Below are positions 5,237 through 39,029 of a stretch of DNA of 52,668 nt, piece after piece. Each line of letters starts with the position of its first letter. Position 1 is the first letter of the stretch. The DNA lies in contig CAZOZZ010000006.1 in NCBI GenBank assembly GCA_964584435.1, positions 1-52,668 of the forward strand, read 5' to 3'. The notes below the pieces were generated by a model. That model made no database searches, was not told where the DNA came from, and saw only the letters and a list, made by a program, of their open reading frames with translations. The position numbers and the translations under genes are program-made. The stretch comes from an uncultured Solibacteraceae bacterium. GTDB lineage: Bacteria > Acidobacteriota > Terriglobia > 20CM-2-55-15.

Positions 5237-5959
5237 TCAGTTCGCGTTATACCCGTGATCCCGCGTGAGCAACAACTCCTTCCATCGAGACTCCCGCTGC
5301 AGAACATCGTCATCGCTGGCATGTGTGTCAGCGATTTCCAGAACGCCGAACTGAAAGTTCTCGGCATAGGCTATTCCTTTGTCTCGCAACAATCGCCGAA
5401 GTTCCCGGTTGCCGCCATGACCAGTCTGCGAATATGCACACCAGCGACTCCAGATACCTTCATCTCCAGTTGCGCTACCGACGTATAGTTTGCCACTGGC
5501 TCTGTCCGCGATGACATAGACACCGGCCACATTGGCTAACGCCGCTTTCCACGAAGCAACCTGCTGCTGCACCACAATGTCGAGCCGTTGCTTGGTCAAC
5601 ATCACCCATGAGTAGCCGGGGAACTCCTCAATCGTCAACTTCTCGGGTCGAATCTCGCCAACCGTCATGGCGTCATCCCAGTTTTCACCGACACGGTACG
5701 ACGCGCGACCAGTACGATGAAAGTTCACCACAAGGCGTCCCTCCAACTCACTAGTCGACTCTCTCGCCCGCAAGTCGTAGATAACTCGCTCTGGGTGTCC
5801 TTTGTTCGGCTCTTCCCTGCAGCCAAGTGAGTCATATGCCCCGACAAACAACCATTGGTGTTTTTGGGGCAACTGGATCAACGACACCACAAATTTGCGT
5901 TCAAAGTTTCTGCGGTTCTGTGACGCCTGCCACTCCTCGAAGTTTCCGGCAAGATACAC
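5237..5959 (-). CDS. two-domain protein with a C-terminal GIY-YIG nuclease domain (240 aa as annotated)
   Basis: C-terminal AGVYVIADRASGKLYVGSATGDEGIWSRWCAYSQTGHGGNRELRRLL ... ESRWKELLLTRDHGYN (GIY-YIG-type core). The annotated start is GTG. The frame stays open about 90 nt further upstream (..CKIHLAVWNGVEDPLD-V-YLAG..) with no canonical start, so the 5' end may be truncated or mis-set. Confidence 0.7.
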   Translation of the reverse strand: MYLAGNFEEWQASQNRRNFERKFVVSLIQLPQKHQWLFVGAYDSLGCREEPNKGHPERVIYDLRARESTSELEGRLVVNFHRTGRASYRVGENWDDAMTVGEIRPEKLTIEEFPGYSWVMLTKQRLDIVVQQQVASWKAALANVAGVYVIADRASGKLYVGSATGDEGIWSRWCAYSQTGHGGNRELRRLLRDKGIAYAENFQFGVLEIADTHASDDDVLQRESRWKELLLTRDHGYNAN

Positions 5960-6023: not shown

Positions 6024-6670
6024 TCAGGTTCGACACTTTTGACAGGTGAACTTCACGCTTTTCGACGGGACGTACATCTTGGCGCTGTCACAGACTCCGC
6101 AAACGACCTTTCCGGCGAAGAGCCACATCGGACGCTTGGATGGCTTCTTGCGTCGCTTCTTCTCTTCGCCGAGGATCTGATTGCACCTATCCCATAACTC
6201 CGCAGAAATGATGGGTTCGACCTCGGTAAAGAACGACTAGCTATTTCAGCCCGTTCCCACTCCGCCATTGCCGCGAGCATTGTGTAGAACAAACGCCCAG
6301 CTGGACTCGAAGTGTCGATGCTTTCTCCAACGGAGATCAGATCTGCGTCAGCCTCACGAAAGAGGTCTGCAAAATCCAGGAGTTCTTTGGTACTGCGAGC
6401 GAGACGAGCAAGCTTCGAGAAGATCAGGCCTGTGATGTGACCCGACTTGATGTCTCCGAGCATCCGCTGAGCCTCGGGATACCCCATGGCAGTCTTGCCG
6501 CTTACACCTTCGAGGTGATAGACCTCGACGACATTCCATCCCTTTGATTCAGCGTAGTACCCAGCGCGTCGCTCATGGTGCTCAGGACTTTCTCCGAGAG
6601 CCTGATCTTCGGTACTGACGCGAATCCAGATTCCGACGCTCTTCTTAAAGGAAGCGTGGTCACGAGTCAT
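6024..6670 (-). pseudogene. large serine recombinase remnant (resolvase domain plus out-of-frame zinc-ribbon fragment; recombinase domain deleted)
   Basis: The N-terminal 150 aa or so form an intact-looking resolvase catalytic domain ([12 protein letters not shown]..., [59 protein letters not shown]), with an AAGGGGA SD 8 nt before the ATG. After about nt 6235 that frame becomes junk. An offset frame instead encodes [64 protein letters not shown], which is typical of the zinc-ribbon region of large serine recombinases. The intervening recombinase domain of about 100+ aa and the C-terminal coiled-coil are absent. Confidence 0.75.
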
Positions 6671-7443: not shown

Positions 7444-8238
7444 TCAGACCGCGGATTTGCCGGGCGGACGGAAGGGCGCGGAAGTTCGGACTGGAATCAC
7501 TCGTATCTCAGAACCATCGGTGCCGACAATCGCGGCGTCGAGCATTGGCGTGGTCCGCGGGTCGGTGGAAACTGCGACGGCTATGCGGCTTTCTTCTGAT
7601 AGCCTGATCAGCGCCAACCACCAATTTTCCGCGGTCTTCTCCGGTAAGGACGCTGAGATCGCCGACGGCGACCGAAGATCGAACGAGACTTGATCCAGCG
7701 CCACGGTGATTCCCACTCCGCACGCTTTCACGTATGCTTCCTTCAGCGTCCAGAGATCAAGGAAGCGCTGCGCTCGGGTCGAGGGAGCCGCAGCGGAGAT
7801 CTGCCGTTGCTCGTCAACGGAACAGACGCTTGGCATCAGCAAATCGACGTCCATTGTCCGCGAGCCGCATTCGGCATCGACTCCGACTTCAGCGTCACGG
7901 CTGACGACGCACGCCACGAGGCCATGCGTGTGGGACAGGCTGAAGCGAATTGGGGGATTCCCGGCTAGCGTGGCAGGCAGGTACGGTTTCCCGCCCGAAG
8001 TACGCTCGAACCGCCACTCCTCGGGCGGGATGTTCGGTGCGGCGGCCGTCAGCATCCGCCGAAGCAGTGCGTGTGCCGCGGCGTAATCCCGGCGATCCTC
8101 CGCAGCGCGGAAACGTCGAAGTTTGTTCGACCCTTCCGCGTCGAGCAGCGCGGCATCGCGCGCCACTTCGGCGTCCGTCATGCGTCGTGATGCAGCGCAG
8201 CGGAGACGCAAGAACGGGGATACGTTGCCATTCATCAT
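7444..8238 (-). CDS. Sfp-type 4'-phosphopantetheinyl transferase
   Basis: Motifs GGKPYL, FSLSHTHGLVACVV, GVDAE and WTLKEAYVKACGVGI (WxxKEAxxK). It lies 53 nt downstream of the TE-containing NRPS gene on the same strand. The start could be the internal Met at residue 20. Confidence 0.9.
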   Translation of the reverse strand: MMNGNVSPFLRLRCAASRRMTDAEVARDAALLDAEGSNKLRRFRAAEDRRDYAAAHALLRRMLTAAAPNIPPEEWRFERTSGGKPYLPATLAGNPPIRFSLSHTHGLVACVVSRDAEVGVDAECGSRTMDVDLLMPSVCSVDEQRQISAAAPSTRAQRFLDLWTLKEAYVKACGVGITVALDQVSFDLRSPSAISASLPEKTAENWWLALIRLSEESRIAVAVSTDPRTTPMLDAAIVGTDGSEIRVIPVRTSAPFRPPGKSAV

Positions 8239-23968: not shown

Positions 23969-26900
23969 CGAAGCGCAACAACTCCAGTTCGTCCGGTGTC
24001 AGAGATACCGGATCCGCATGATCGGAGGATCCACTCGCGGCAGTCGCGATCTCCGTTGACCGGGGTCGCGCTCGGAGTAACGATGCCAGCGACGCAATCG
24101 TGGGATTACGGAACAGCTCCATCATCGTGACCGGTACATTCAGTTCCTTTTGCAATCGGAAAACCGCTCTCGTCGCCGCAAGGCTGTGTCCTCCGCTACG
24201 AAAGAAATCATCATGGATGCTGATGGGGCGAACGTCCAACACTTGCTCCCAGACTGTCCCTATAGCCACCTCCATCGCGTCACGAGGCTCCTCAAAAGCC
24301 GCCTCGCTCGAAAACGCGGACGGCTCCGGCAAAGCCGAACGGTCCACCTTTCCGTTGGCAGCCAAGGGCAAGGCATCCAAAGTGACGAACGCGGACGGCG
24401 TCATGTATGCCGGCAACAGCATTTTCAAATGCGACCGCAGCGCGGACGCTTCGACGGTCCCGAAGGCGACGATGTACGCCGCCAGAGCCGTTTCACCCTC
24501 ATCGTTGGACACGCATACGACCGCGGCTTCCTGGACGCTTTCGTGGCGACAAAGGGCAGCTTCCACTTCACCGGTTTCAACGCGATGTCCCCGCACTTTG
24601 ACTTGATGGTCCGTCCTTCCCAGGAACTCCAGCAAGCCGGTCGAATCGAAACGTACGACGTCGCCAGTGCGATACAGGCGTCGACCGTCACCGTCGGTGA
24701 TGAATCGCTCCCGGGTCCGCATCTTCTGCCCACGGTATCCGCGAGCGAGTCCCACGCCTCCAATGAACAGCTCCCCGGGAACGCCGAGGGCCGACGGTTG
24801 GAGCCATCGATCAAGGACGTAGACCGAGGTATTGTGTATCGCCTTTCCAATACTGACCACGGGAGGCGCGCCTTCCGCAACATGATTGGAATCAATGCGG
24901 CAGGCCGTGCTCCAGATCGTGCTTTCAGTCGGCCCGTAAACGTTCCAGAAGCGACCGCACCGTGCAAACAGGCTGGATGCCAGTCCCCGATGCAGCGCTT
25001 CTCCGCCGCAAAGGATCGTAAGCTCCGGACTTCCCTTCCAACCCGCTGCCAGCAACATCCGCCACGTACTGGGAGTCCCCTGCATCAACGTGATGTCCCC
25101 TCGCGCCAAACGCTTGCCGATCGCTTCGCCATCCACGGCCATCGCACTTGAAGCAATGACGGTGAGTCCTCCGGAAATCAGAGGCAGATAGAGCTCCAGG
25201 CCGGCGATATCGAACGACACCGTGGTCAAGGACAGAAAGGCATCCTTGTCGGTCATCCCGATCATTTCCTTGAAAGAAAGCAGGAGGTTGGCGAGGGCGC
25301 CATGCTCGACCTCAACACCCTTCGGAACTCCAGTGGACCCAGACGTATAGAGCACGTAGGCAAGTTGCGAGGCCCCCACTTTCGGGAGAGGACGCGGATT
25401 ATCTGTCTCTATGCTCTTATGAAGCGGCAAAATCCGGCTCTTCGTCTCCTCTGAACCAATCAACTCCTCGACACGCCCTTCCGTGTCCGCATCGACCAGC
25501 ACGACGCTTGCCCCAGAGTCCTGGAGCATCTGAATGCAGCGATGATCTGGATACGCGGGATCAATAGGAACGTAGGCGAAACCCGCTTTGAGAATTCCAA
25601 GTAGCGCAGCGAGAAGGTCCATTGACCGCTCCAGACATACCGCGGCGACCGTCTCCGCCGCCTCGCTCCGGCTCATGAGATATGCCGCAATCTCGGTGGA
25701 CCGGCTGTCCACCTCCTGATAAGTCCAGGTTCGGTCTTCGAAGGATACGGCCGCATTGTGAGGAGTCTTCCGAACATGCTCTTCAAGAAGATCGAGCAAC
25801 GTCACTTCGTTGGCCAGGGGCAGAGTAGCTCCCTGAAATGACGTCATTAGCTTGCTTCGTTCGGTGCCGGGAACGATGTTCAGTTTCCCGCAAGCAACCT
25901 CCGGGTTCGTGATCGCATGGTCGGCAAGCTCAAAAAAATGGGCCGCCATGCGCTCGATGCGCTCGCGGGAGAACAGGTCGGTCCTGTACCGCAACCCCAA
26001 AAGCAAGTCGTCTCCCTCGGCTGCGAAGTCAAACGACAGATCGTACTTCGCAGTTTTGTTTGGAATCGCGACCGCCTCAACGGCGATTCCATCCAACTTC
26101 AAATCCACGGCTCCTGCATTCTGCAAACTGATCAGAACGTCAAAAAGCGGCGAATGGCTGAGATCCCGGGTCGAGGTGTCCCGATCAACCACGTCATCAA
26201 AAGGATGGGATTCGTTCTCATACGCATCCAGGCATGTGGCGCGAACCTGGCGCAGGAATTCGGCGAACGAGACGTCAGGATCGATCCTCGAACGCAAGAC
26301 AATCGTATTCAGATAGAAACCGATCTGGTCCTCCAGATCCGGATGAGACCTGCCTGCCACAGGGGTGCCGACCACGACATCCATCGAACCCGAATAACGA
26401 TGGAGCAGCACGACCAGCACGGAGTAAAGCGCCATGAACGGCGTGGCCCGATGTGCTGTGGCAAATGCCTCGATTCTCGCGCGGAAATTCGAGCCCAGCG
26501 CAAGGGTCAGCATATCCCCTTCAAAACTGGGAGTTGAAGGCCGAGGAAAGTCGGCAGGCAGGTCGAGGACGGGCAATTCGCCGGCAAGTTGCCGGTCCCA
26601 GTAACTTGCGGACCTCGATGCCTCGTCGGATTCCAGGAAACGGTTTTGCCAATATGAAAAATCCCGGTATTGCAAACGGAGCGATGGCAAATCGGGCGAT
26701 GTGCCACCCCGAAACGCGTTGTACGCGACCCGGAGTTCACGGCTGAGAATGCTCAGGCTCCAGCCATCCGCCACAATGTGATGCAAGACGAGATGTAATT
26801 CATGGCGTTTGGGTGCAAGCCGGATCAGTTGGGCTCTCATCAGGGGAGCCCGATCCAACGCGAAAGGCAGTCCAGAGAAACGCTTCGCCTCGCAAACGGA

Positions 26901-29900
26901 CGCTGATTCAGCGTCATCAGCGGACGAGAGATCGGAAAATGGCATCTCCCACGAGATGTCGGACAAAACCTCTTGTACCGGGTCCTCGCCATTCGAAACG
27001 AAACGGGTGCGCAGCGATTCGTGGCGACCAATAATCGTGGTAAATGCCCGGGCTAATGCGGCTCGATCGAGGTCTCCATCCAGGCGCACCACCAGAGGAA
27101 TGTGGTAAGCCCTCGAACCTTCCTCAAACTGGCACAGCAGCCACAGACGTCTCTGGGCTCGGGACAACGTATACCTGTCCTGATCTGGAGCCCGGGGAAT
27201 CCGGCTACCGACGGATTCGGTTTCACCTCGAATTTTTTGAGCAAGGCCCAGGATCGTCGGGCTTTCGAACAAGCTCTTGAGTGGCAGCGTCGAACCGAAC
27301 ATGCTGTTGAGCCGTGTGATCATGCGGCTTCCCAAAAGAGAGTCTCCCCGTAGTTCGAAAAAGCTCTCCTGGTTGCCGATGTGCTCGGTTCCCAACATTT
27401 CCTTCCAGAGTGCAACCAAACGACCCTCGATGCTTCCATCCTGGGGAGCCTGTGTACCCGGCTCATCCTGCTGGCCTGATTGTTCGGTCTTGTCTCCCGT
27501 TCGATTCTCGCTGACGTCCTTCCAACGGTCGAGTCGGGAGAACAAGTCGTGGCTGGAAACAACGACACCTCCCGTTGGGGCGCCGACGACAATCGAGAAA
27601 GCCATCTCGCTTTCCTCGAGTGTCATCTCCATGCGGTCCATTGCTGTCGCTTGCGACGAATCGATTCGCTCGCGGCGAAGCGTCGGCCAGCCGTCCCATG
27701 CGGAAGTGATCCAGCGCGTGACGCCACGCCGATTCTGCACCAACGCGAACGCATCCATGGCACAGTTGGCAGCTGCATATGCGGCGAGACCGAGACCTCC
27801 CAGGACAGTGGCATTCGACGAGATCAGAAGGACAAAGTCGAGGTCCACACCCTCCAGAGCTTTAGCCAGGGCGCGCGCCCCTCCGAGCTTGGGCTCCGAC
27901 TGCTCGACAAAGTGACTTTCCTCAAGTTCCTCAAACGGCGTGAAGATCGACGAACCGCTGGTCGTGCCGGCAGCGTGAATAACGCCATCGAAGTCACCAT
28001 ATCTGGTCCGGGTGCGCTGGACTGCCGCGAACACGTCGTCAGGGCGCGAAACATCTCCCGACAGCAGGAGCGCCTCGCCGCCAAGACGCTCGATCTCCTC
28101 GGCGAGCCCAACACCGCTCGTTTCCGCATGACGAGAAAACAAGACCAGTCGAGCGCGTTGGGTTCTCGCCAGGTAGCGAGCCAGAATTGCCCCGACGCCC
28201 CCGGTGCCCCCGGTAATCAAGTACACGCCGTGCTTCCGCAGTCGCCCAGCCCCGACAGGGATCCGCAGAGGCTCATGGGCGAGCGTCCATCGATGGGCGT
28301 GTCGGAAGGCAACAAACATGTCGGGCTGCGACGAAAGGATCTCGTTTCCGAGAAGTTCCGTCAGCCTGGGCTCCCCAGCCACTTCGGGACCGACATCGAT
28401 GGAACGGCAGGTGATGTAAGCGTTCTCCTGCCCGATCACAACGACTGGCCCACGAACTGCTCCTTGCAGTGGGTCGATCGCTTCGTCGCCAGTCACGTCA
28501 TGGGCACAGCACGTGATCTCTGTAATCAGAATCGGACGATTCGGCGCAAGATCTTTCCAGGCAGTAGCAATGCGGTTCAGCCTGACAGCGGACCCGGAAA
28601 AATCGATGATGCGATCCGGGAGACAACCCGACTTCGCGCGATCGGCTAGTAGAGAAGCGACGTCCGGATGTTCGACAAGGTCTACCTCGTGACCTTCGCG
28701 ACCTAGTCTTTCCGCCAATCCGGACGCAACTGCGCCTCCGTCTGAAAGGATCAACCAACTCCGGGTCGAATCCGCTTCCGTTACCGGAGGCATCGCCCGG
28801 CGCCACGCTGACGTGTAAAACCAATCGTCCACATGAGCGCGTTTCACGGTCGATCCACGACCAGCGTCGTCTCCGGCCCGCCGGGGCTCGATCCAGAGTC
28901 GTTTACGATTAAAAGAAAGACCCGGCAATGGAACACGCGCCGGCTCCTGCCCGGAGTAAAACGCCTTCCAGTCCACGGGCACACCCTCGATCCAAAGTCT
29001 GCCCAGCCCAGTTAAGACCGTCGCGACCGAGGACTGCCCCTCCTCCAGCGCGTGGGGCAGCGTAGGGAAGACGCTCTGCCCGCCGGACATGTGCGGATGC
29101 TGGCGGACGACTGACGTCAAAGCGCTGCCTGGCCCAACTTCCACAAGGACCCGCAGCGGATCGTCGAACAGGCTCCTTACCCCTTCCGCAAAGCGAACGG
29201 TCTGACGAAGCTGATTCGTCCAATATGCCGGGTCCTGCGCTTCTCGATCCGTGATCCATGTGCCCGTAGTGTTCGAAAGGAACGGAATCTGCGGGACGCC
29301 AAGCGTCAATGTCTCCAGGAATTCTCGAAACGACCGAAGGATCGGCTCTACAAGTCTCGAGTGCGCCGCGACGGAAATATGAAGTCGGTGGCTTTCGACT
29401 CCATGAGATTCAAACAACGCTCTCGCATTCTCGATTGCCTCAGTCGTGCCCGAAATAACACAGGACCCCGGAAGGTTGACAGCCGCAATGTCGCACGAAT
29501 CATCAAGTAGCGTTCGGACCCGTTCTTCGACGAGCTGGACGCTCAGCATGGCGCCGGGCGCGACCTTCTCGAACAAACGGCCTCGGAACGCAACAATGCG
29601 CAGGGCATCTTTCAAGTCCAACACTTCTGCCAGGCAGGCCGCAGCGTACTCCCCCAGGCTATGTCCGATCATCGCGCCCGGTTGGATACCCCAGGACATG
29701 AGCAACTTCGCCAACGAGTACTCCGTAATAAACAGCGCCGGCAGACCCAGTGATGGGGAAAGGAGCTTCGCGGCCGCTGCGGTCTCTTCGCCTGCCGGCG
29801 GATACATCACCGAACGAAAGCTGCCGCCCAATTCGGACGCTAAGACATCGCAACAGTGATCGACCTGCTCGCGAAAGTACGGTTCGCTGTTGTAGAGATC

Positions 29901-32900
29901 GCGCCCCATATTGATGTATTGGGCACCGCCCCCTGGAAAGAGAAAGGCCACAGAGGTGCCGGACCGCGCCGCGGCGGCGAACGAGTGAGGCGAATGTGTA
30001 TTGGCGAGCGCTCCGCTCGCATGGCTCACATCCGGTGAAACAACAATTCGGCGATGCTCAAACACGCGCCGTCCGGTTGCAAGCGTGTAGGCCACATCCC
30101 CCAGACCACTGTTCGGCCGCGCCGCGAGATGGTTCGATAGGTGCCCGGCGACCTCTTCCAGCTGATCGCCGGACGGCGCGGATAGCGGCAGCAATTGATA
30201 GGTCCTCGCGGCCACACCGACAGGACGGTACGGTGCCTCTTCCAGCACGGCATGGGCATTCGTGCCGCCAAGTCCGAACGAACTCACCGCCGCTCGACGG
30301 GGAGAGTCCGATGCGTCCCAATCCCGCAACTTGCAGTTGACAAAAAAAGGACTGTTCTTGAAATCGACTGCAGGGTTTGGAGAGACGAAGTTGAGGCTCG
30401 GTGGAATCTGTTTTCGATCGAGCGAAAGCACCGTTTTTATCAAACCTGCAACGCCTGCGGCGGCATCCAGATGGCCGATGTTTGTTTTGACAGAGCCAAT
30501 TGCACAATAACCAGTCCGTGCAGTCCCGGCACCGAAGACCCCGGTGAGGGCAGCAAGCTCGATGGGATCGCCCAGGCTCGTTCCCGTGCCATGGGCTTCG
30601 ACGAGGGAAATCGTGTCCGGGTCAACACCCGCCAGGCTCTGAGCATCGGCGATCGCGGCGGCCTGTCCTCCGACGCTCGGTGCCGTGTATCCGACTTTCG
30701 CCGATCCGTCGTTGCTGACCGCGATGCCTTTGATGACGGCCGCAATGTGATCCCCGTCGTGTAGGGCTTCGGACAGGCGCTTCAACACAACAATTCCGGC
30801 CCCGCTCCCGCTGACGGTTCCCCGCGCGCTGGCGTCGAAGGCGCGGCAATGGCCGTCCGGCGACAGGATGCCTCCTTCGTCATAAAGGTATCCTTCGACC
30901 TGGGGCACTTTCACCGATACTCCACCGGCCAGCGCAATGCTGCACTGGCTGTTGAGCAGCGCCTGACAGGCCAACTGCACGGCAACCATGGAGCTGGAGC
31001 ATGCGGTACCTACCGCGACGCCCGGACCTGTAAGATTGAGCTTGTAACACACCCGCGTCGCGATGAAATCTCGTTCGTTTCCGATCAGGACAGGATAGAC
31101 CCCGATCGACTCGATGAGATCCTGATTGCTATACAGGTTGTTCAGTAAGTACGAATTGAGACTCGCGCCGGCATACACTCCGATCCTGCCGTCATACTGT
31201 TCCGGCACATAGCCCGCATTCTCCAGGGCCTCCCAGGCACACTCGAGAAACAACCGGTGCTGGGGATCCATCACTGCGGCTTCGCGGTCGGGTATGCCGA
31301 AGAACTCGGCATCGAAGTATTCGATGGAATCCAACAAGGGCTTGCTCTTCACGTAGCGCGGGTTCCGAATCAGGGACTCGGATACGCCGGCAGCCAACAG
31401 CTCTTCATCACTCAAGTCCCGCACGGATTCGACGCCGTTTTTCAGATTGCTCCAGAACTCTTCAGTATTGCTCGCTCCGGGAAACCGCCCCGCCATGCCA
31501 ATGACCGCCACATCCATTGTCCGCGCCTCGAGCGGACGGACCTCGGCAGCGGTGACTATTGGGCCAGGCTGGCTCTCGTCGGTCTCCAGAAATTGCGCCA
31601 GCGCACCAATAGTCGGATAGGAAAACAGATCGACGAGAGCGATTTCGCGTTCATAAAGGATCTGCAGTTGACGATGGACCTCGATGAGCAACAGTGAATG
31701 GCCGCCCAGATCGAAAAAATTATCATCTGGACCGACATCACTGCGCCGGAGGACGCCACGCCATATTGCCGCAAGAGGCTCCTCCCGGGCGACAAGGTTC
31801 GCATGGGAAGAAGGCGGTGAACTGTCTGGAGAGGGCAACGTGGCGTAGTTCGTCTTTCCGTTGCCGGTCAACGGAACCGAAGGGATGTCGACGATCCGCG
31901 ATGGAACCATGTAATCCGGCAACGTGGCCTTCAAGTGCGCGCTCACCTCCCTTTTCCATTCTTCAGGCGCACCCGGCTCCAGCACCACGTAGGCCACGAT
32001 TCGCTTGTCGACGTCCCGAAGATCATCGGAAGGCTGCCAGAGGGTCACCACGGCCTCGCGGACAGCGGAAGACGAGGCAAGAGCACTTTGGACTTCGCCA
32101 AGCTCCACCCGATGTCCCCGAATCTGCACTTGCCTGTCGTTCCGGCCCACGTATTCGAGCGAGCCATCGGAAAGCCACCGGCCAAGATCACCCGTTCGAT
32201 AAAGCCGTTCGCCTGCTTCGAAGGGGCTACTGATAAATCGTTCCGCATTCAGATCGGGACGGTTCAGGTAACCCCGGCATACTCCCGTTCCTCCGACGAA
32301 CAATTCGCCCGTGACACCGACAGGCTGAAGATTCATCTCGTCATCGCAGACGTAAACGCGGGTTTCGGGAAGCGGTACACCTATCGGGCTGATTGACCCA
32401 CCGCCTTGTATGTGCTCCTGACAGAGTGGCCCGTACGTGACATGGACGGTCGTCTCGGTGATTCCGTACATGTTGATCAAACGCACCTGCTCCAGGGGAT
32501 ATATCGAGACCCAATCACGTAACTCCTCAGGAGAGAGGCGATCTCCACCGAAGATTACATAACGCAGGCTCTGCTCCAGATCGTGCTCGGAGACGCCCCG
32601 CTCGACTTCGATCATCCCGTAAAATGCCGCGGGAGTCTGATTGAGAACGGTGACTCGATGCTCTCGAATCAGTTCTCGAAGAGCAGCGGGGTTGCGGGCG
32701 GCGCTTCGAGACGCGATGACCGCTCGTCCGCCATAGAGAAGCGCACCGTACAATTCCCACACGGAAAAGTCGAACGCGAACGAGTGGGCAACAATCCAGG
32801 TGTCAGTCTCATTGAAATCGAACGGAAAATGCTCGTTCTTCATCAACCGGACAACATTCCGATGAGTGACGGCACACCCCTTTGGCTGCCCGGTCGAGCC

Positions 32901-35900
32901 CGACGTATAAATGACGTACGCCACATCATCGGACGACACGTGCGGGAGAACAGTGTCTTCACTCTCGGAGACTGTCGGGGAGATATCGAGGACTTCCCCG
33001 CCGAACAACCCGCGTAGCGACTCCAGGTGGGCGGTCTCGCTGAGAGCTAACGCCGCCCCGCAATCTTCCAGGATGAACCGGACTCTCGAAGCCGGATAAG
33101 AAGTATCGATCGGCACATACGCCGCGCCGGCTTTGAGAATCGCGAGAAACACGACCGGCATCTGCTCGGACCGCTCGATGAAGACGGCCACATAACGTTG
33201 ATTGGTCGGTTTACCGGCCAAGCGCACCGTCACCTGTCGTGCCAGGAGATCGGCACGCAAATTCAATTCATCGTAGCTGAGGCGGTTTTCCTCGAAAATC
33301 ACCGCATCGGAGCCAGCGCGCAATGCGGCCCGCTCTTCGAAGAGAGAAACAATCGTGCTGTCGCTCGGATAGTCGCTGTCTGTCCGATTGGCCGATTGGA
33401 TAATCTCGGACTCGGCAGGTGGAACAAATTCAATAGCACCGCATCGCTGGGAAGGATCTCGAACGACTTCATTCGCCGCGTGCTGCAACTGCCCCGTCAT
33501 TCTTCGGATCCGGGCCCGACTGAAGAGGGCTTCGCTGTACTCGATATAGCCTTCGATTGATCCGGCACGCTCCTCAAAAACAAAATTGAGATCAAACTTG
33601 CTTGTTTGCTTCGGATCCGTGAAGGGCAGGATCTCGAGACCCGGAAGACTCAGTTCGGAGCCCTCGACATTCTGTAACGTGATCGCAACCTCGAACAGAG
33701 GAGACCGGCTCACGTCTCGCACCAGGTCCAACTCCGACACAAGTAGATCGAACGGATAATCCTGGTGTGCATAAGCGTCGAGCGCAGTCTGTCTGACGGA
33801 CCCCAGAAGCCCCGAGAAGGTCATCTTGCCGTCCACGCGATCTCGCAACGGCAGCACGTTGACATAAAAGCCCACTTGGTTTTCCAGATCGGCGTGCTGC
33901 CGGCCGCTAACCGGACATCCGACCGTCAGGTCGCTTTGCCCGCTGAGACGGAACAGCAGGAACTTGACGATCGCGGACAGCGTCATATACAGGGTCGCGT
34001 TCGCCGATCGGCTCAACGCATGGAGTCCTGTCGCCAGCTCGGAGTCGTATTCGAAGTGTTCCCGGCCTCCAGAATAGGTCTTGACGGGGGGCCTCGGAAA
34101 ATCCGCAGGGAGATCCAGAACGGCGAGGGGACCGGCAAGCTTCGTGCGCCAGTAGTCGCGATCCGGTATGGTCTTCTCTTCATGAAGAAGAGCGGCCTGC
34201 CAGTGGGCATAGTCCTTGTAATGGATTCTAAGCGGCGAGAGTGCCGTCTGGTCGCCGCGCGCCCTCGCCTCATAGAAACGGGCGAACTCCCGAATCAAGA
34301 TTCCAAGACTCCACGCGTCCGAAACAATGTGATGCACATTGAAGCACAGGACCACCCGATCGTCCCCCACCTTCAGGAGGGCCACACGAAGCAACGGCCC
34401 TGCTTCCAGATCGAATTCGGCCTCTGTATCTGCAGCAGCCCACTCCAACGCGGACTGTGACGGATTCAGTTCGCTACGACAGTCCACGTGGTTGAGGGAA
34501 ACACTCAAATCGGCATGGATACGCTGCCAGAGACCTCCATCAACTGCCACAAAGGTCGTCCGTAAGGCCTCGTGCCGCCGAATCACGTCCGACAAAGCTT
34601 CCTCGAAGCAATGGACCCGCAGCTCGCCTTCCAGCAGAACCAACCTCTGCATGTTGTACGCTGTCGACGCTCCCAAACGAGCGAGCGTCCAGAGGCGGCG
34701 CTGGGCGTGCGACGCCAGATACAACTCGGCTACGGGAGCAGGCGTGATCGGAGTGGATCTCCTCGGCGTCGCCGCTCGAACCCAGTTGGAAAGGTCCCGG
34801 AGCCGTGGAAAGCGGAATAGCTCGCGCACACCGATGGGAATCCCGAACTCCCGGTCGATCCGGTTGGCCACTTGAATGGCTTTCAGGCTGTGTCCGCCAA
34901 GCAGAAAGAAATCGTCTCCCGCTCCGATAGGAGCACGGTTGAGGACCTCGGTCCACATGCCCGCAATCCTGCTTTCGACATCGTCCAACGGACCAACGAT
35001 CTCATTCGAACGATCATCCTTTGCTCCGAGCGCCTCAAGGGCGGCACGATCGATCTTCCCATTCCTCGTCAATGGAAGCGTTTCAACAATATGGATCCTT
35101 GAAGGAAGGAGGTATCTCGGCAGCCTCTCGGCCAAAAAAGCCTGGACCTGATGGACGGAAGCATCGGCTACGGCGAAAGCCACCAGTTCCGTCTCCGTGT
35201 CTTCATCGCGAACAACGACGGCGCACTGCCGCACCTCCGGATGCTCTTCGACCGCGGCCTCGACCTCCAGCGGATCGACCCGGAACCCCCGGACCTTGAC
35301 ATGGCTGGCGACGCGTGCAACGAACTCGACACTGCCATCCGCGCCATATCGGCCGAGATCACCGCTGCGATACATCCGATCTCTCACATTCGCCATCGGC
35401 TCGCAGTCCTGGAAACGATCCCGCGTGAGCTGCTCCGCGTCCAGATAACCTTCGCAAAGCAGAGGCGTGCGGATCCAGATCTCAGCCAACTCTCCGACGC
35501 CTGCAAGCCTTCGCTGTTCGTTTAACAACAGCAGTTGGACCGAGTCGATCGGATGGCCCAGAGGCACCGGGGCACCCGACAAACCGTCGTCCAGCTCAGG
35601 GGACCTCAATAGCCGCCACGCCATCGCCTGCGGTGTTTCCGTGGCGCCATAGAAATTAACAAAGGAGCATCCTGGCGCCCATGCGTGAAGACGCTGCGCG
35701 TCGCCGTAGAGCAAACGGTCGCCTCCGAAGAAGACGAAGCGCAGAGCAGACAGATCAGCCGCTGCCGCCTCCCGGGGGGGGATGATCTGCGCCAGGGGCG
35801 GCGTCAGGTGAGCAACCGTGATTCCCTCTTCTCTAAGCCAAGCCAGCAGGCGCTCTCCATTTCCCTTCGCGATTACGGGGGGAATATGGAGGGACGCGCC

Positions 35901-38900
35901 GATCGCGAGGGGTGTAAAGAGATCTCGCAATGCAGGGTCGTGTGCGATTCCCGAAAGAAGGCTGAAGTGGTCCTTGGCCTCCAGGCCGAAAGTGCGGGTG
36001 TGCCATTCCAGAAAATGGGTCACCGGACCGTGAGTTCCGACAACACCCAGAGGACCTCCCGTTGTGCCCGAAGTGAAGGCAACGTACGCGAATGCCTCTT
36101 CCGATACCGCCACCGGCAGGATCCCGTCGGGACACGGTTCAAGATTTGCGGTCACCTCTGCCGCTGAGGCGCCCTGCAGTTTCTCCAACACTACTTGGTT
36201 AGAAGCCAACGCCTCAAATTCATCGGTATTACCGGCCTCGTCCAACACGATAATTGCCGCGGGAGATGCTATTTCAGCAATCGACCAGAGTCTCTGCGGC
36301 AAGTTGTCCGAATCGAGAATCGAGAAAGCGCAGCCTGATTTCAGGACAGCCAACACCGCACAGACAAGCGATGCCGATGGCGCCGCATAGATGGCAACCG
36401 TCTCGCCCGACTGCACCCCGATCTGCCGAAGGCGATACGCGAGCCGGGTACTTGCTTCGTTCAGCTCGCCATAGCTCCACGATCCGCTCTCGCCGACAAC
36501 AGCTAAACGATCCGGATGCAGCACAGCCCGATTCATGAATAATTCATGAATCGCGCCGCATTGTTTGGCTTTGAGCGGGACACTCACATCCGGCAACGCC
36601 CGGTGGTCCTGCGGCCGAATCAAAGAATACTCGCCGATTGGGATTCGAGGGCTTTCCACGATCTGCTCGATCAACAGCGTCATGTGATCAAGAATGCGTT
36701 CGACCGATTCCGGTCGATAAAGACGCGCATTGTAGACCAACTCAAAGTGGATTCGGCCCATCTCGTGTTGCGCGTACAATGTGATATCGAAGCGATTGGG
36801 GAGCTCCTCGACCGCATACGGGCTGACTTCCAGGCCGGATAGTTCCAGGTCCGCTTTCCGCAAGTTGAGAACGTTGAGGAAGATCTGAAAGATCGGGTTG
36901 TACGCCAGGTCACGGGATGGCTGCAGCGCCTCGACGATTTTCTCGAATGGGAACTGTTGATTCGCAAACGCGCCAAGCGCAGTGTCGCGGACACGGGCAA
37001 GCAAGTTGAGAAACGATGGATTTCCACTGACATCAGTCCGCAGCGCAAGAGTATTCACGAAACAACCGATGACAGCTTCGAGCTCTTGCCGATCGCGGTT
37101 CGCGGTCGGCGTGCCGATGACAACGTCATTCTGGCCGGAATAACGGAATACCAGAAGTTTCAACACTGCGAGCAGGAACATGTAGAAAGTCACGCCCTCG
37201 CGCTTTGTCAGAGCCTGGACGGCTGGAGAAAGCTCCCGCGGGAGTGTTCGCTTCGCCATGCCGGCTTCCCACTCCACTCCGTTGAGACGCGGAAAGTCGG
37301 TTGGAATCACCGAGAGAGGTGGCGCACCCTCCAGCTTCGTCTTCCAATAGCCGAGCCCCTCATCAAAAGCTTCACCTGCCAGCCACTTCCGCTGCCACAC
37401 CGCATAGTCTGCGTATTGCAGTGCAAGCTCCGGCAAGGGCGACGGCCGTCCGTCGAGAATCGCCTCGTAGAGCGTTCCGAGCTCCTCAAAAAACACGCCG
37501 CGCGACCAGCCGTCCGTAATGATGTGGTGAATCGTCAGGAGCAGCACGTGCTCGCTCGCTCCAAGCCGGATCAATGCCACCCGCAAGAGCGGCCCCTCCG
37601 TCAAGTCGAACGGCTCACCGTTGATTCGTGTCGCGAAAGCCTGAATCTCTCCGGGCCAACTATCGGAGCTCACGTTCTCGAGATCACATTCCAACAACGG
37701 GAGTTCGAACGGCCCCCGAATGACCTGCCGTAGTTCACCGTCACGGCTGAAGAACGACGTCCGTAAGCTTTCATGCCGCCGGACCAGTTCGTTCAAACCG
37801 GCACGAAGGACGCCGATGTCCAATGCTCCACGCAATCGCAACGCGCCTTGCGCGTGATACGCCACGCTTCCGGGCTCCAGCTGATCGAGGAACCAGAGTC
37901 TCTGCTGAGAGAACGACACCGGCAGGTCCGACGCTCTTTCGACCCTGGGAATTTTCTCGCTCCGGTCGGGTTCATGTTTCGAGGGCGAGGCCACTTCGGA
38001 CGCGAGCCTCTCCAGCAAAGCCTGAGCTTCGGATGGCGCTATTCGAGTTTCATCGTACAGGGCCTGAATTCGCAGGGTCGCCGTATCGATAACGAGCCGG
38101 AAGGGCGCATCGACGTTTGGGTCTATGTATGACGCGGCATCGGGGTCCAAAGCGAAGGCGGTGCGACCAAGCGCGGGCCAGTCACCGGTCAGCGTGAGAG
38201 TGCTGTCAACAGTGCTGGAATCCGAACCCGTGTTCGCGAAGAGACCGAGGACGGATTCCGACCCGGCTACCGATGGAGGACGGCCCGGGATCACAAGCCC
38301 GAATGACGAATCTCCGGACACGGACGCCCAGAGGTCGCGGAACATACCCACGAGTCCCGATTTGTGTCGAAAGGCCTCGGTGCGCAGCACCTCTACGGAA
38401 GTATCTGGCAGGGTGACGTCGGTTCTACGGAAACCGCGCAAGCTGGAGGCAGCATGGTGTGGCTGAACGTGAGCCTCAATGTGTGACTTTGAAGCAAGAA
38501 GCACCTGTCTGTAGTGATTGACTGCACCTGTATCGACCGTACGTTCGGCAAACAGACGGTCGTAGCTCGAAATCAGGTTCCTTAAGAGAAGAAATACAGC
38601 CCATCGGTCCAGCAGCGCACGGTGATAGGTGACAACGAGCCGCATCGGGCCGGTTGGGGGCTGAAGCAGGCAGAAGCGGACCAATGGTGCTGTGCCGAGC
38701 TCAAACGGTTGTGAAGCATCCCGCTTCAGGAAATCCGGTAAAGCGGCGATGTCAGTTGAAACGATAGCCCCGAGGCTGACTCGCGAGACGATCTGAACCG
38801 GCGCCTCCTCCTCTTGACAGAGGAGAGAAGTTCGCAGAACTGCCTGAGTTCGAAAAAGATGCTCCACCGACTGACGCAGCAGAGCGATGTCTATCGCTCC

Positions 38901-39029
38901 GTCGATAGACGCGACGAACTGTTCCATCTCGAAACCGGGCTTTGGGGTCGCCCGAACACAGGCGAGGACTTCCACCTGAAATGGTGAGAGCGAATAAATC
39001 GCCTCGATGTCTTGACGGATGCCGCTCAT
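23961..39029 (-). CDS. hybrid NRPS-PKS, modules 3-5 plus one PKS module: C*-C-A*-T-C-A-T-KS-AT-KR-ACP-C-A-T (5,022 aa)
   Basis: aa 1-348: shortened C-like domain (DIEAIYSLSPFQ; YHRALLDRW in place of HHxxxDG). C (SFSQQRLWFLDQ; HHIITDGWS, HH 501-502). Divergent A (aa about 820-1331). T (LGGHS, Ser1381). C (HHIVSDAWS). A (DFWNIGMVHK). T (Ser2445). KS (GTACSSS Cys2677, EAHGTGT, NIGH). AT (GHSLGE Ser3124; VAAHS). KR (ITGGTGGVG aa about 3604; Ser3737/Tyr3750). ACP (RGDSL, Ser3897). C (HHIVADGWS). A (DILQLGVIWK). T (GGHS, Ser4949). My residue count closes exactly on 5,022. Confidence 0.97.
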   Translation of the reverse strand: MSGIRQDIEAIYSLSPFQVEVLACVRATPKPGFEMEQFVASIDGAIDIALLRQSVEHLFRTQAVLRTSLLCQEEEAPVQIVSRVSLGAIVSTDIAALPDFLKRDASQPFELGTAPLVRFCLLQPPTGPMRLVVTYHRALLDRWAVFLLLRNLISSYDRLFAERTVDTGAVNHYRQVLLASKSHIEAHVQPHHAASSLRGFRRTDVTLPDTSVEVLRTEAFRHKSGLVGMFRDLWASVSGDSSFGLVIPGRPPSVAGSESVLGLFANTGSDSSTVDSTLTLTGDWPALGRTAFALDPDAASYIDPNVDAPFRLVIDTATLRIQALYDETRIAPSEAQALLERLASEVASPSKHEPDRSEKIPRVERASDLPVSFSQQRLWFLDQLEPGSVAYHAQGALRLRGALDIGVLRAGLNELVRRHESLRTSFFSRDGELRQVIRGPFELPLLECDLENVSSDSWPGEIQAFATRINGEPFDLTEGPLLRVALIRLGASEHVLLLTIHHIITDGWSRGVFFEELGTLYEAILDGRPSPLPELALQYADYAVWQRKWLAGEAFDEGLGYWKTKLEGAPPLSVIPTDFPRLNGVEWEAGMAKRTLPRELSPAVQALTKREGVTFYMFLLAVLKLLVFRYSGQNDVVIGTPTANRDRQELEAVIGCFVNTLALRTDVSGNPSFLNLLARVRDTALGAFANQQFPFEKIVEALQPSRDLAYNPIFQIFLNVLNLRKADLELSGLEVSPYAVEELPNRFDITLYAQHEMGRIHFELVYNARLYRPESVERILDHMTLLIEQIVESPRIPIGEYSLIRPQDHRALPDVSVPLKAKQCGAIHELFMNRAVLHPDRLAVVGESGSWSYGELNEASTRLAYRLRQIGVQSGETVAIYAAPSASLVCAVLAVLKSGCAFSILDSDNLPQRLWSIAEIASPAAIIVLDEAGNTDEFEALASNQVVLEKLQGASAAEVTANLEPCPDGILPVAVSEEAFAYVAFTSGTTGGPLGVVGTHGPVTHFLEWHTRTFGLEAKDHFSLLSGIAHDPALRDLFTPLAIGASLHIPPVIAKGNGERLLAWLREEGITVAHLTPPLAQIIPPREAAAADLSALRFVFFGGDRLLYGDAQRLHAWAPGCSFVNFYGATETPQAMAWRLLRSPELDDGLSGAPVPLGHPIDSVQLLLLNEQRRLAGVGELAEIWIRTPLLCEGYLDAEQLTRDRFQDCEPMANVRDRMYRSGDLGRYGADGSVEFVARVASHVKVRGFRVDPLEVEAAVEEHPEVRQCAVVVRDEDTETELVAFAVADASVHQVQAFLAERLPRYLLPSRIHIVETLPLTRNGKIDRAALEALGAKDDRSNEIVGPLDDVESRIAGMWTEVLNRAPIGAGDDFFLLGGHSLKAIQVANRIDREFGIPIGVRELFRFPRLRDLSNWVRAATPRRSTPITPAPVAELYLASHAQRRLWTLARLGASTAYNMQRLVLLEGELRVHCFEEALSDVIRRHEALRTTFVAVDGGLWQRIHADLSVSLNHVDCRSELNPSQSALEWAAADTEAEFDLEAGPLLRVALLKVGDDRVVLCFNVHHIVSDAWSLGILIREFARFYEARARGDQTALSPLRIHYKDYAHWQAALLHEEKTIPDRDYWRTKLAGPLAVLDLPADFPRPPVKTYSGGREHFEYDSELATGLHALSRSANATLYMTLSAIVKFLLFRLSGQSDLTVGCPVSGRQHADLENQVGFYVNVLPLRDRVDGKMTFSGLLGSVRQTALDAYAHQDYPFDLLVSELDLVRDVSRSPLFEVAITLQNVEGSELSLPGLEILPFTDPKQTSKFDLNFVFEERAGSIEGYIEYSEALFSRARIRRMTGQLQHAANEVVRDPSQRCGAIEFVPPAESEIIQSANRTDSDYPSDSTIVSLFEERAALRAGSDAVIFEENRLSYDELNLRADLLARQVTVRLAGKPTNQRYVAVFIERSEQMPVVFLAILKAGAAYVPIDTSYPASRVRFILEDCGAALALSETAHLESLRGLFGGEVLDISPTVSESEDTVLPHVSSDDVAYVIYTSGSTGQPKGCAVTHRNVVRLMKNEHFPFDFNETDTWIVAHSFAFDFSVWELYGALLYGGRAVIASRSAARNPAALRELIREHRVTVLNQTPAAFYGMIEVERGVSEHDLEQSLRYVIFGGDRLSPEELRDWVSIYPLEQVRLINMYGITETTVHVTYGPLCQEHIQGGGSISPIGVPLPETRVYVCDDEMNLQPVGVTGELFVGGTGVCRGYLNRPDLNAERFISSPFEAGERLYRTGDLGRWLSDGSLEYVGRNDRQVQIRGHRVELGEVQSALASSSAVREAVVTLWQPSDDLRDVDKRIVAYVVLEPGAPEEWKREVSAHLKATLPDYMVPSRIVDIPSVPLTGNGKTNYATLPSPDSSPPSSHANLVAREEPLAAIWRGVLRRSDVGPDDNFFDLGGHSLLLIEVHRQLQILYEREIALVDLFSYPTIGALAQFLETDESQPGPIVTAAEVRPLEARTMDVAVIGMAGRFPGASNTEEFWSNLKNGVESVRDLSDEELLAAGVSESLIRNPRYVKSKPLLDSIEYFDAEFFGIPDREAAVMDPQHRLFLECAWEALENAGYVPEQYDGRIGVYAGASLNSYLLNNLYSNQDLIESIGVYPVLIGNERDFIATRVCYKLNLTGPGVAVGTACSSSMVAVQLACQALLNSQCSIALAGGVSVKVPQVEGYLYDEGGILSPDGHCRAFDASARGTVSGSGAGIVVLKRLSEALHDGDHIAAVIKGIAVSNDGSAKVGYTAPSVGGQAAAIADAQSLAGVDPDTISLVEAHGTGTSLGDPIELAALTGVFGAGTARTGYCAIGSVKTNIGHLDAAAGVAGLIKTVLSLDRKQIPPSLNFVSPNPAVDFKNSPFFVNCKLRDWDASDSPRRAAVSSFGLGGTNAHAVLEEAPYRPVGVAARTYQLLPLSAPSGDQLEEVAGHLSNHLAARPNSGLGDVAYTLATGRRVFEHRRIVVSPDVSHASGALANTHSPHSFAAAARSGTSVAFLFPGGGAQYINMGRDLYNSEPYFREQVDHCCDVLASELGGSFRSVMYPPAGEETAAAAKLLSPSLGLPALFITEYSLAKLLMSWGIQPGAMIGHSLGEYAAACLAEVLDLKDALRIVAFRGRLFEKVAPGAMLSVQLVEERVRTLLDDSCDIAAVNLPGSCVISGTTEAIENARALFESHGVESHRLHISVAAHSRLVEPILRSFREFLETLTLGVPQIPFLSNTTGTWITDREAQDPAYWTNQLRQTVRFAEGVRSLFDDPLRVLVEVGPGSALTSVVRQHPHMSGGQSVFPTLPHALEEGQSSVATVLTGLGRLWIEGVPVDWKAFYSGQEPARVPLPGLSFNRKRLWIEPRRAGDDAGRGSTVKRAHVDDWFYTSAWRRAMPPVTEADSTRSWLILSDGGAVASGLAERLGREGHEVDLVEHPDVASLLADRAKSGCLPDRIIDFSGSAVRLNRIATAWKDLAPNRPILITEITCCAHDVTGDEAIDPLQGAVRGPVVVIGQENAYITCRSIDVGPEVAGEPRLTELLGNEILSSQPDMFVAFRHAHRWTLAHEPLRIPVGAGRLRKHGVYLITGGTGGVGAILARYLARTQRARLVLFSRHAETSGVGLAEEIERLGGEALLLSGDVSRPDDVFAAVQRTRTRYGDFDGVIHAAGTTSGSSIFTPFEELEESHFVEQSEPKLGGARALAKALEGVDLDFVLLISSNATVLGGLGLAAYAAANCAMDAFALVQNRRGVTRWITSAWDGWPTLRRERIDSSQATAMDRMEMTLEESEMAFSIVVGAPTGGVVVSSHDLFSRLDRWKDVSENRTGDKTEQSGQQDEPGTQAPQDGSIEGRLVALWKEMLGTEHIGNQESFFELRGDSLLGSRMITRLNSMFGSTLPLKSLFESPTILGLAQKIRGETESVGSRIPRAPDQDRYTLSRAQRRLWLLCQFEEGSRAYHIPLVVRLDGDLDRAALARAFTTIIGRHESLRTRFVSNGEDPVQEVLSDISWEMPFSDLSSADDAESASVCEAKRFSGLPFALDRAPLMRAQLIRLAPKRHELHLVLHHIVADGWSLSILSRELRVAYNAFRGGTSPDLPSLRLQYRDFSYWQNRFLESDEASRSASYWDRQLAGELPVLDLPADFPRPSTPSFEGDMLTLALGSNFRARIEAFATAHRATPFMALYSVLVVLLHRYSGSMDVVVGTPVAGRSHPDLEDQIGFYLNTIVLRSRIDPDVSFAEFLRQVRATCLDAYENESHPFDDVVDRDTSTRDLSHSPLFDVLISLQNAGAVDLKLDGIAVEAVAIPNKTAKYDLSFDFAAEGDDLLLGLRYRTDLFSRERIERMAAHFFELADHAITNPEVACGKLNIVPGTERSKLMTSFQGATLPLANEVTLLDLLEEHVRKTPHNAAVSFEDRTWTYQEVDSRSTEIAAYLMSRSEAAETVAAVCLERSMDLLAALLGILKAGFAYVPIDPAYPDHRCIQMLQDSGASVVLVDADTEGRVEELIGSEETKSRILPLHKSIETDNPRPLPKVGASQLAYVLYTSGSTGVPKGVEVEHGALANLLLSFKEMIGMTDKDAFLSLTTVSFDIAGLELYLPLISGGLTVIASSAMAVDGEAIGKRLARGDITLMQGTPSTWRMLLAAGWKGSPELTILCGGEALHRGLASSLFARCGRFWNVYGPTESTIWSTACRIDSNHVAEGAPPVVSIGKAIHNTSVYVLDRWLQPSALGVPGELFIGGVGLARGYRGQKMRTRERFITDGDGRRLYRTGDVVRFDSTGLLEFLGRTDHQVKVRGHRVETGEVEAALCRHESVQEAAVVCVSNDEGETALAAYIVAFGTVEASALRSHLKMLLPAYMTPSAFVTLDALPLAANGKVDRSALPEPSAFSSEAAFEEPRDAMEVAIGTVWEQVLDVRPISIHDDFFRSGGHSLAATRAVFRLQKELNVPVTMMELFRNPTIASLASLLRARPRSTEIATAASGSSDHADPVSLTPDELELLRFDE
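27225..31520 (-). other. KS-AT-KR-ACP PKS module embedded in the 5,022-aa protein
   Basis: KS Cys codon verified at 30999-31001 (gca on the plus strand). See the parent CDS for the AT, KR and ACP motifs. Confidence 0.9.

Follow-up and report, generated by a model that had tools for sequence, protein, structure and literature searches.

The adenylation domain A3 and its module

We analyzed a 52,668-nucleotide stretch of DNA (hereafter the window) from an uncultured Solibacteraceae bacterium, i.e., positions 1 to 52,668 of contig CAZOZZ010000006.1 in assembly GCA_964584435.1. The source genome is a draft of 227 contigs and 94% complete. On its minus strand, the window carries a nine-module cluster of nonribosomal peptide synthetase (NRPS) and polyketide synthase (PKS) genes, in which one adenylation (A) domain, A3, departs from the eight others. 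The cluster starts with a type II thioesterase, a protein of condensation (C), A and carrier (T) domains in the order C-A-T, and a KS-AT-ACP-aminotransferase-C-A-T-E protein. Then follows an NRPS-PKS protein of 5022 amino acids, encoded by a single open reading frame (23961..39029) that is open throughout and has the domain order decayed C, C, A3, T, C, A, T, KS, AT, KR, ACP, C, A, T. Two more multidomain proteins, C-A-T-C-A-T-E and C-A-T-C-A(MT)-T-TE, and a PPTase complete the cluster. A3 spans residues 820–1331 of the 5022-residue protein, i.e., 512 amino acids without a stop codon (Table 1).

Table 1. Domains and core motifs of the A3 module, with positions in the window.
Feature	Position	Strand	Remarks
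A3, Lys2-like clade adenylation domain	35037..36572	-	PF00501 200 bits (cut-off 29.9), PF13193 62 bits (cut-off 24.5); TIGR03443 best NCBIfam match
P-loop FTSGTTGGPLG, Leu994 replacing the phosphate-binding Lys	36045..36077	-	CTG codon 36050-36048
A4 region SGIAHDPALRDLFTPL	35907..35954	-	holds code positions D235, P236, R239
A5 region NFYGATETPQAMAW	35616..35657	-	holds code positions F322, Q330, A331 and the Mg-binding Glu
A8 hinge motif ARVASHVKVRG	35286..35318	-	hinge Ala is GCC, 35309-35307
A10 motif NGKIDR, catalytic Lys retained	35046..35063	-	translation and alignment of nine A domains
Condensation domain C2 (HHIITDGWS)	36594..37925	-	immediately upstream of A3, co-inherited with A3
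Carrier domain T3 (GGHSL, Ser1381)	34770..34997	-	expected acceptor of the A3 product; Ser motif kept in orthologues
Condensation domain C3 (HHIVSDAWS)	33405..34727	-	downstream of T3
Decayed C-like domain (YHRALLDRW)	37980..39029	-	N-terminus of the 5022-residue protein

The catalytic motifs of C2, T3 and C3 are all intact, and the 5022-residue protein has no reductase domain; A3 is followed by T and then by C. An earlier reading of the window's letters, made without database searches (the sequence-only reading), had placed A3 in an elongation C-A-T module with no reductase nearby, and the C-A-T-C order with its HHIITDGWS, GGHSL and HHIVSDAWS motifs agrees with this. A3 passes the cut-offs of PF00501, PF13193 and TIGR01733 (326.9 bits, cut-off 317.4) and is thus an NRPS A domain. 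The core motifs YGATE with the A5 Glu, YRSGD (A7) and NGKIDR with the A10 Lys are all retained, and A9 is kept as well.

Two core motifs deviate. Core motif A3, i.e., the P-loop, has the form (S/T)(S/T)G(S/T)TGxPK and binds the nucleotide phosphates, and the A8 hinge motif is Rx(D/K)xxxxxxG (PMC10510592). The P-loop of A3 reads TSGTTGGPLG with Leu in the Lys position, and the Leu994 codon is two base changes away from AAG or AAA. The hinge motif reads RVASHVKVRG; it keeps the Arg and the terminal Gly, and the hinge residue is Ala. All of the a3, a4, a5, a7, a8 and a10 motifs listed in the sequence-only reading were present in the translation, including the quoted motif LSGIAHDPALRDLFTPL, as was the Leu codon.

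The specificity code of A3, re-derived by comparison with its eight siblings (window 8292-51529, minus strand), is DPRHFGFQAK, the same as had been extracted before. The sibling codes are DLWTIGMVHK, DFWNIGMVHK (three times), DILQLGVIWK, DAFFMGVTFK, DLTKVGEVGK and DAFFLGVTFK, the last one belonging to the methyltransferase-interrupted A domain. We take them to be Thr-like, Thr, Gly, Ile/Val, Asn-like and Ile/Val codes, respectively. In the alignment of the nine A domains, A3 was 28–31% identical to each sibling, and the siblings were 33–49% identical to one another. Literature string searches gave no usable match for DPRHFGFQAK, and the supplement of PARAS likewise contained none.

We compared A3 with a generic sample of 836 A domains longer than 400 residues, drawn from the window and from 150 large NRPS representatives; the latter came from a search dominated by the summed scores of giant multi-A proteins. 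At the P-loop position, Lys was found in 828/836 domains and Leu solely in the window, with a non-basic residue of any kind in only five. The hinge residue was Asp in 830 and Lys in five, and Ala occurred solely in the window. Likewise, the A8 Gln position held Gln in 827/836 domains and His in the window only. Given this rarity and the published motif definitions, the deviations of A3 are real and not trivial.

A Lys2-related clade of bacterial adenylation domains

A3 has relatives in many organisms. A scan of a genome collection gave 16 loci with A3-like domains of 39–45% identity, hosted by Acidobacteriota, Thermoanaerobaculia, Nitrosospira, Longimicrobiaceae, Burkholderiales and Micromonospora. 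Of the 150 large NRPS representatives, 25 likewise carry one such domain or two, and a word-indexed search returned about 100 further fragments that are annotated solely as 'amino acid adenylation domain-containing protein'. A3 is 39–51% identical to the members of this group vs. 28–31% to its siblings. In a tree, the group was monophyletic, with 100% support in the Shimodaira-Hasegawa-like approximate likelihood ratio test (SH-aLRT) for 46 rows, apart from the other A domains of the window.

The best NCBIfam match of A3 was TIGR03443, the Lys2 model, with 341 bits vs. 327 bits for the generic model TIGR01733. Two relatives from other organisms scored 425/388 and 492/359 bits with the two models, respectively, whereas two sibling A domains used as control gave 207/444 and 141/399 bits. 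As the relatives favor the Lys2 model and the siblings reverse the order, the Lys2 likeness is specific to the clade of A3. The hidden Markov model comparison thus bears out the resemblance to Lys2 that the sequence-only reading had noted. With 341 bits, A3 stays below the whole-protein TIGR03443 equivalog cut-off of 1030, and it does not have the A-T-R architecture.

Clade members share the motifs SGLxHDPLLRDxFTPL (in general form SGxxHDPxxRDxFTPL) and NFYG(A/T)TETPQAMAW and the code DPRHFGFQAK. HDPxxRD was invariant in an alignment of 19 clade sequences, TPQAM was the most frequent form of A5 (55/98), and the hinge residue was Asp in 128/132 members. Hence the a4 and a5 peculiarities are common property of the clade, and A3 is not a one-off divergent copy. 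On the strength of tree, profiles and motifs, A3 is a member of a large, widespread and uncharacterized clade of bacterial NRPS A domains that is related to Lys2. Neither a characterized member nor a solved structure of this clade turned up, and a structure profile search ranked generic A domains only; the earlier statement that the code matches no known specificity holds to this extent.

Clade A domains come with a particular partner. A C domain was present upstream in 30/30 cases, and in 29/29 it matched C2 of the window best, with a median of 361 bits vs. 249 bits for C domains upstream of other A domains. The C-A unit thus travels together. None of 22 clade modules had an E domain after it, which is what a tether through the distal carboxyl would predict; with a background of just 7%, however, this result is not significant. 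We also observed that clade A domains sit at the C-terminal protein end (A-T, end) in 8/30 cases vs. 51/819 for other A domains, and that none of them starts a protein (P0003-P0152).

Lys2, i.e., α-aminoadipate reductase, is a fungal A-T-R enzyme, whereas A3 belongs to a C-A-T elongation module of a nine-module NRPS-PKS system. We assume that Lys2 shares with A3 an a4 region of the SGIAHDPxxRDxFTPL type and the first five code positions, DPRHF. At code positions 6–9, A3 has GFQA and Lys2 presumably VMRA; Lys2 presumably also keeps the P-loop Lys and the hinge Asp, both of which are replaced in A3. Within the wider Lys2-like family, some stand-alone proteins combine A-T with a hexapeptide-repeat (PF00132) or an acyltransferase_3 (PF01757) domain (P0241, P0246, P0249, P0256, P0257, P0262-P0264). 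Bushley and Turgeon noted bacterial A domains that are sister to the fungal α-aminoadipate reductases; these belonged to A-acyltransferase proteins, i.e., they had this architecture (PMC2823734).

Compared with canonical A domains (TIGR01733; PheA/GrsA, LgrA, EntF), A3 keeps A5, A7, A9 and A10, whereas it has HDP in place of FDxS in a4, no P-loop Lys and neither Asp nor Lys at the hinge. An AlphaFold2 model of A3, built with 19 clade sequences, was confident and reached a predicted local distance difference test score (pLDDT) of 85 and a predicted template modeling score (pTM) of 0.80. The model superposed best on the thiolation-state structures of EntF, LgrA and PltF with template modeling (TM) scores of 0.82–0.87 (0.83–0.87 on EntF and LgrA). 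For EntF (5ja1/5t3d) and LgrA (6mg0), TM scores were 0.85–0.87 with root mean square deviations (rmsd) of 3.1–3.5 Å, vs. 0.73 and 10.7 Å for adenylation-state PheA (1amu). The C-terminal subdomain of the model is in the thioester-forming orientation; we did not use this conformation for any inference.

Orthologous clusters and selection on A3

Among the 45 clade members compared first, every P-loop carried Lys or Arg and every hinge Asp. The window departed from this set at 10 of 62 near-invariant columns, more than any other member, which looked like decay. In a larger sample, a non-basic P-loop residue (Leu, Asn, Ala, Ser, Gln or Thr) was found in about one in ten clade members (11/132), with the other motifs intact. 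On the 132-sequence clade tree, such residues arose at least 5–7 times.

The closest relative of A3 is a Leu-bearing fragment, P0244, with 51% identity; it lies on contig L038, which carries a syntenic cluster. L038 is a frameshift-ridden assembly that was compared in parts, and its A3 gene fragment covers 300 amino acids. A search with the aminotransferase domain of the protein that precedes the 5022-residue protein gave three more syntenic clusters from metagenomes, L039, L040 and L041. These three share the thioesterase, the C-A-T protein, the KS-AT-ACP-AMT-C-A-T-E protein and a homologue of the 5022-residue protein. Identities of the syntenic clusters to the window are 69% for the aminotransferase domain, about 68–70% for KS, 57–61% for the A4 core and 48–51% for the A3 core. 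Among 40 genomes related to that of the window, we found neither an A3 orthologue nor a cluster of the same kind. As an aside, the metagenome contigs L038-L041 represent a family of NRPS-PKS clusters in which the type II thioesterase, C-A-T and KS-AT-ACP-AMT-C-A-T-E proteins are followed by a long protein; their domains overall are 45–70% identical to those of the window. Genes for DUF697, an ABC transporter and Band_7 lie ahead of the cluster in L039-L041.

All five orthologues, i.e., those of the window and of L038-L041, read PLG in the P-loop. The Leu is therefore an old, fixed character of the orthologous group. Arg65, which is Arg in 115/122 other clade members, is replaced by Pro in the window and L041, by Ala in L039 and by Ser in L040 (not read in L038). 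The normally invariant A6 Gly is Ala in the window and in L039-L041, and Gly in L038. The hinge residue varies: it is Ala in the window, Asp in L038 and L040, and Gly in L039 and L041. As read from these orthologues, the P-loop change from Lys to Leu, the loss of Arg65 and the A6 change from Gly to Ala are older, inherited traits of one orthologous group. Private to the window are the three A8 changes (Gly to Ala, hinge Asp to Ala and Gln to His; the Arg, the Lys and the Arg-Gly pair are kept) and two further substitutions. No basic residue that could compensate for the missing Lys from another position was found in the orthologue group.

The window and L039-L041 agree in all ten code residues, and the L038 fragment has the nine that it covers, as it stops before the A10 Lys. 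In the 132-sequence tree, the window and L039-L041 formed a clade with 99% local support. A freshly crippled domain does not fit a P-loop Leu that is common to all four syntenic orthologues next to a hinge that varies between Asp (twice), Gly (twice) and Ala. The sequence-only reading had named what would overturn it, namely close homologues with the same motif variants and a documented substrate: the homologues exist, and a documented substrate was not found.

Three of the orthologous clusters contain an additional module. Directly before C2-A3-T3, L039 (18816-20400), L040 (18814-20450) and L041 (17602-19200) have a C-T module that lacks an A domain, with an intact C (HHILLDGW) and an intact T (GGHSL). 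At the corresponding site of the window, the C domain is eroded with internal deletions and the carrier domain is deleted; L038 has neither. Aligned in this way, the decayed C-like domain at the N-terminus of the 5022-residue protein is a remnant of the A-less C-T module that is intact in L039-L041. The product of the window cluster is hence probably one residue shorter than that of L039-L041.

We estimated the ratio of nonsynonymous to synonymous substitution rates (dN/dS) between L039 and L041 by the Nei-Gojobori method (NG86). For A3, the ratio was 0.28 (core) and 0.29 (subdomain), as compared with 0.12–0.24 for C2, T3, C3, A4, T4, KS and AT; with dS of 0.8–1.0, i.e., close to saturation, these values are rough. 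The distance from the window to the orthologues, divided by that between orthologues, was 1.28 and 1.19 for A3 and 1.32–1.46 for every other domain. As this is lower than for its neighbors, A3 of the window is not accelerated. An acceleration had been suggested by a tree without the orthologues, where the window branch measured 0.98 vs. a median of 0.46; the relative-rate comparison with the orthologues removed this impression. A3 thus evolves neither near a ratio of 1 nor faster than its neighbors, and neither the A10 Lys nor the pocket residues have been lost, in contrast to what would mark a pseudo-A domain. Purifying selection in the orthologues without acceleration in the window also speaks against the earlier suggestion that A3 could be crippled.

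Among 57 columns that are at least 95% conserved in the 122 other clade members, the window keeps 50 and deviates at seven, and the orthologues deviate at three to five; the clade median is one and the 90th percentile three. By this count, invariant positions have suffered some erosion in the orthologue group, and most in the window.

Activity, substrate and surroundings of the cluster

We favor, with a probability of roughly 60%, the reading that A3 is an active, non-canonical and maintained A domain, more Lys2-like than ordinary. The arguments for activity are the pocket, conserved in orthologues at about 50% identity, the retained A5 Glu, A7 Asp, A8 Arg, Lys and Gly and A10 Lys, the purifying selection without acceleration in the window, and the recurrence of P-loop variants in clade members that are otherwise intact. 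The lysine-less P-loop of A3 accordingly looks like a maintained variant and not like a broken part, judged by its sequence relatives. What is new here, in terms of these comparisons, is the orthologue group with its fixed lysine-less P-loop and variable hinge, together with the evidence for its maintenance.

Several findings weigh against this reading. The window lacks both the P-loop Lys and an Asp or Lys at the hinge, a combination unique among about 960 A domains examined. Asp, Gly and Ala at the hinge of only five orthologues resemble relaxed constraint at a catalytic position, where Asp is found in 830/836 generic domains and 128/132 clade members. Moreover, the dN/dS of A3 was the highest of ten domains compared, and its seven deviations from the 57 conserved columns are the most in its group and above the 90th percentile of the clade. 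The substrate proposal given below draws on assumed codes of Lys2, ACV synthetase module 1 and McyE. Also, the best-matching A domain of PvdL is not close to A3 (134 bits); the PDB fragment is described as E2-C3-A3-PCP3. We take PvdL to load a γ-linked Glu as well, and the matched domain may be another than the one for Glu.

The main rival reading, for which the variable hinge, the seven deviations and the dN/dS of A3 also speak, is that A3 is a catalytically dead scaffold. Replacement of the P-loop Lys by Leu, of Arg65 and of the A6 Gly by Ala would then have abolished adenylation in the common ancestor of the cluster family; the fold would be kept only for the sake of the C-A-T arrangement, and T3 would be loaded by another A domain of the cluster, or the module skipped, much as the sequence-only reading had considered. 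The joint loss of several normally invariant core residues solely in this orthologue group speaks for it. In addition, the A-less C-T module next to A3 in three orthologous clusters means that loading across modules must occur in this family. Inactive A domains with defects in core motif A3 are documented, e.g., PyrG A1 from the tandem A domains of pyridomycin biosynthesis, which has a defective phosphate-binding motif just as A3 of the window (PMC10510592). However, the A10 Lys is missing from PyrG A1 as well, and a working A domain lies next to it, whereas A3 keeps this Lys and its pocket, is the sole A domain in its module and carries a variant that is conserved in orthologues under purifying selection. 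A scaffold would not need ten pocket residues that are identical in the window and L039-L041 (and the nine covered in L038), nor would it be expected to show a dN/dS of 0.28, far below 1, without any rate acceleration in the window. We hence regard a dead scaffold as unlikely on balance, yet as the most serious competitor of an active A3.

If A3 were dead and its module not skipped, T3 would need another loader. Apart from the nine A domains of the cluster, the genome contains one further enzyme of the ANL type with 483 amino acids, encoded on contig 8. It adjoins an acetyl-CoA-synthetase-like gene, a glyoxalase and a hydroxyisobutyrate dehydrogenase; by this neighborhood it is an acyl-CoA ligase of primary metabolism, and we rejected it as a trans-loader. 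Neither a stand-alone NRPS-type A domain nor an MbtH-like protein was found in the 94%-complete genome, which also counts against the scaffold.

If A3 is active, its substrate might still not be an acidic amino acid; candidates would be β- or ω-amino acids, such as those of Ebony and AASDH, which are relatives of Lys2, and dicarboxylic or other non-α-amino acids. The A3 code fits no assigned specificity while the other eight read as canonical, the clade is sister to the generic amino-acid A domains, and relatives include A-T proteins fused to an acyltransferase or a hexapeptide-repeat domain in place of C (see also PMC2823734). We consider such a substrate improbable, because Asp235 and the A10 Lys, which hold the α-amino and carboxyl groups in ordinary A domains, are invariant, and because A3 is flanked by two ordinary C domains, which require an amine as nucleophile. 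Genes for the biosynthesis of a special substrate were found neither in the window nor in the flanks of the homologous clusters. Errors of sequencing or assembly, or decay that set in very recently in this one genome, are very improbable as the source of the deviations even for a draft of 227 contigs, given the two base changes from Lys to Leu, the same Leu in four independent assemblies, a frame open for 5022 codons and no window-specific acceleration.

For an active A3, we propose the following course. The substrate would be bound in the conserved pocket and converted to the acyl-adenylate with the help of the Thr, Ser and Gly residues of the P-loop, the A5 Glu with its Mg, the A7 Asp and the A10 Lys. 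A3 would then swing about its small-residue hinge and form the thioester on Ser1381 of T3, and C2 would join the upstream chain, ending in D-Thr, to the amino group of the A3 substrate. This substrate may be an acidic amino acid such as Glu or 2-aminoadipate, perhaps held by its distal carboxyl as in Lys2. Such a tether would place an iso-linked residue with a free α-carboxylate between two Thr residues.

We propose an acidic substrate, and loading through the distal carboxyl, with low confidence. The idea draws on the Lys2 affinity, on the start of the code with Pro236, Arg239 and His278, and on a Pro-Arg pair assumed for distal-carboxyl activators. We assume that Lys2, ACV synthetase module 1 and McyE share this pair (Pro236-Arg239) and activate the distal, i.e., δ- or γ-, carboxyl. 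The McyE code was not contained in the microcystin papers examined, and the search with the aminotransferase domain gave no McyE-like protein with an AHDP-type A domain. In AfcQ/VinN, an Arg binds the α-carboxylate of Asp so that the β-carboxyl is activated (PMC12186527). The VinN-type enzymes are a separate stand-alone lineage unrelated to A3; the likeness of A3 to these side-chain-carboxyl activators, ACV synthetase module 1 and McyE included, is proposed as a functional analogy only.

In the most far-reaching reading, the orthologue group would constitute a working class of A domains without the P-loop Lys (5/5) and without an acidic or basic hinge residue (3/5), with altered ways of holding ATP and of switching between the adenylation and thiolation states. 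It might serve two carriers in the three relatives with the A-less C-T module, and, by loading an acidic amino acid through its distal carboxyl, introduce iso-peptide links into an unknown family of acidobacterial-type, lipopeptide-like products. We offer this wider picture tentatively; as a whole it is doubtful.

The A3 clade is often found among uncultured soil phyla (Acidobacteriota, Gemmatimonadota, Nitrosospira and others), and substrate prediction for NRPS fails on it; the specificity of one member would annotate hundreds of modules. Moreover, A domains are routinely judged inactive by their P-loop Lys and hinge residue, and in A3, which appears to be maintained, both are replaced. Either this rule is unsafe for the clade, or a conserved family of scaffold-only A domains exists; both outcomes matter for NRPS enzymologists and engineers. 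If the distal carboxyl is indeed used, the products would hold iso-linked acidic residues, which would have to be taken into account in structure prediction.

Just past the PPTase gene (7444-8238), with which the cluster ends, the window contains a resolvase gene (6053-6670) and a weak GIY-YIG-like open reading frame (5237-5959). Their position beside the PPTase gene fits a mobile or recently inserted cluster.

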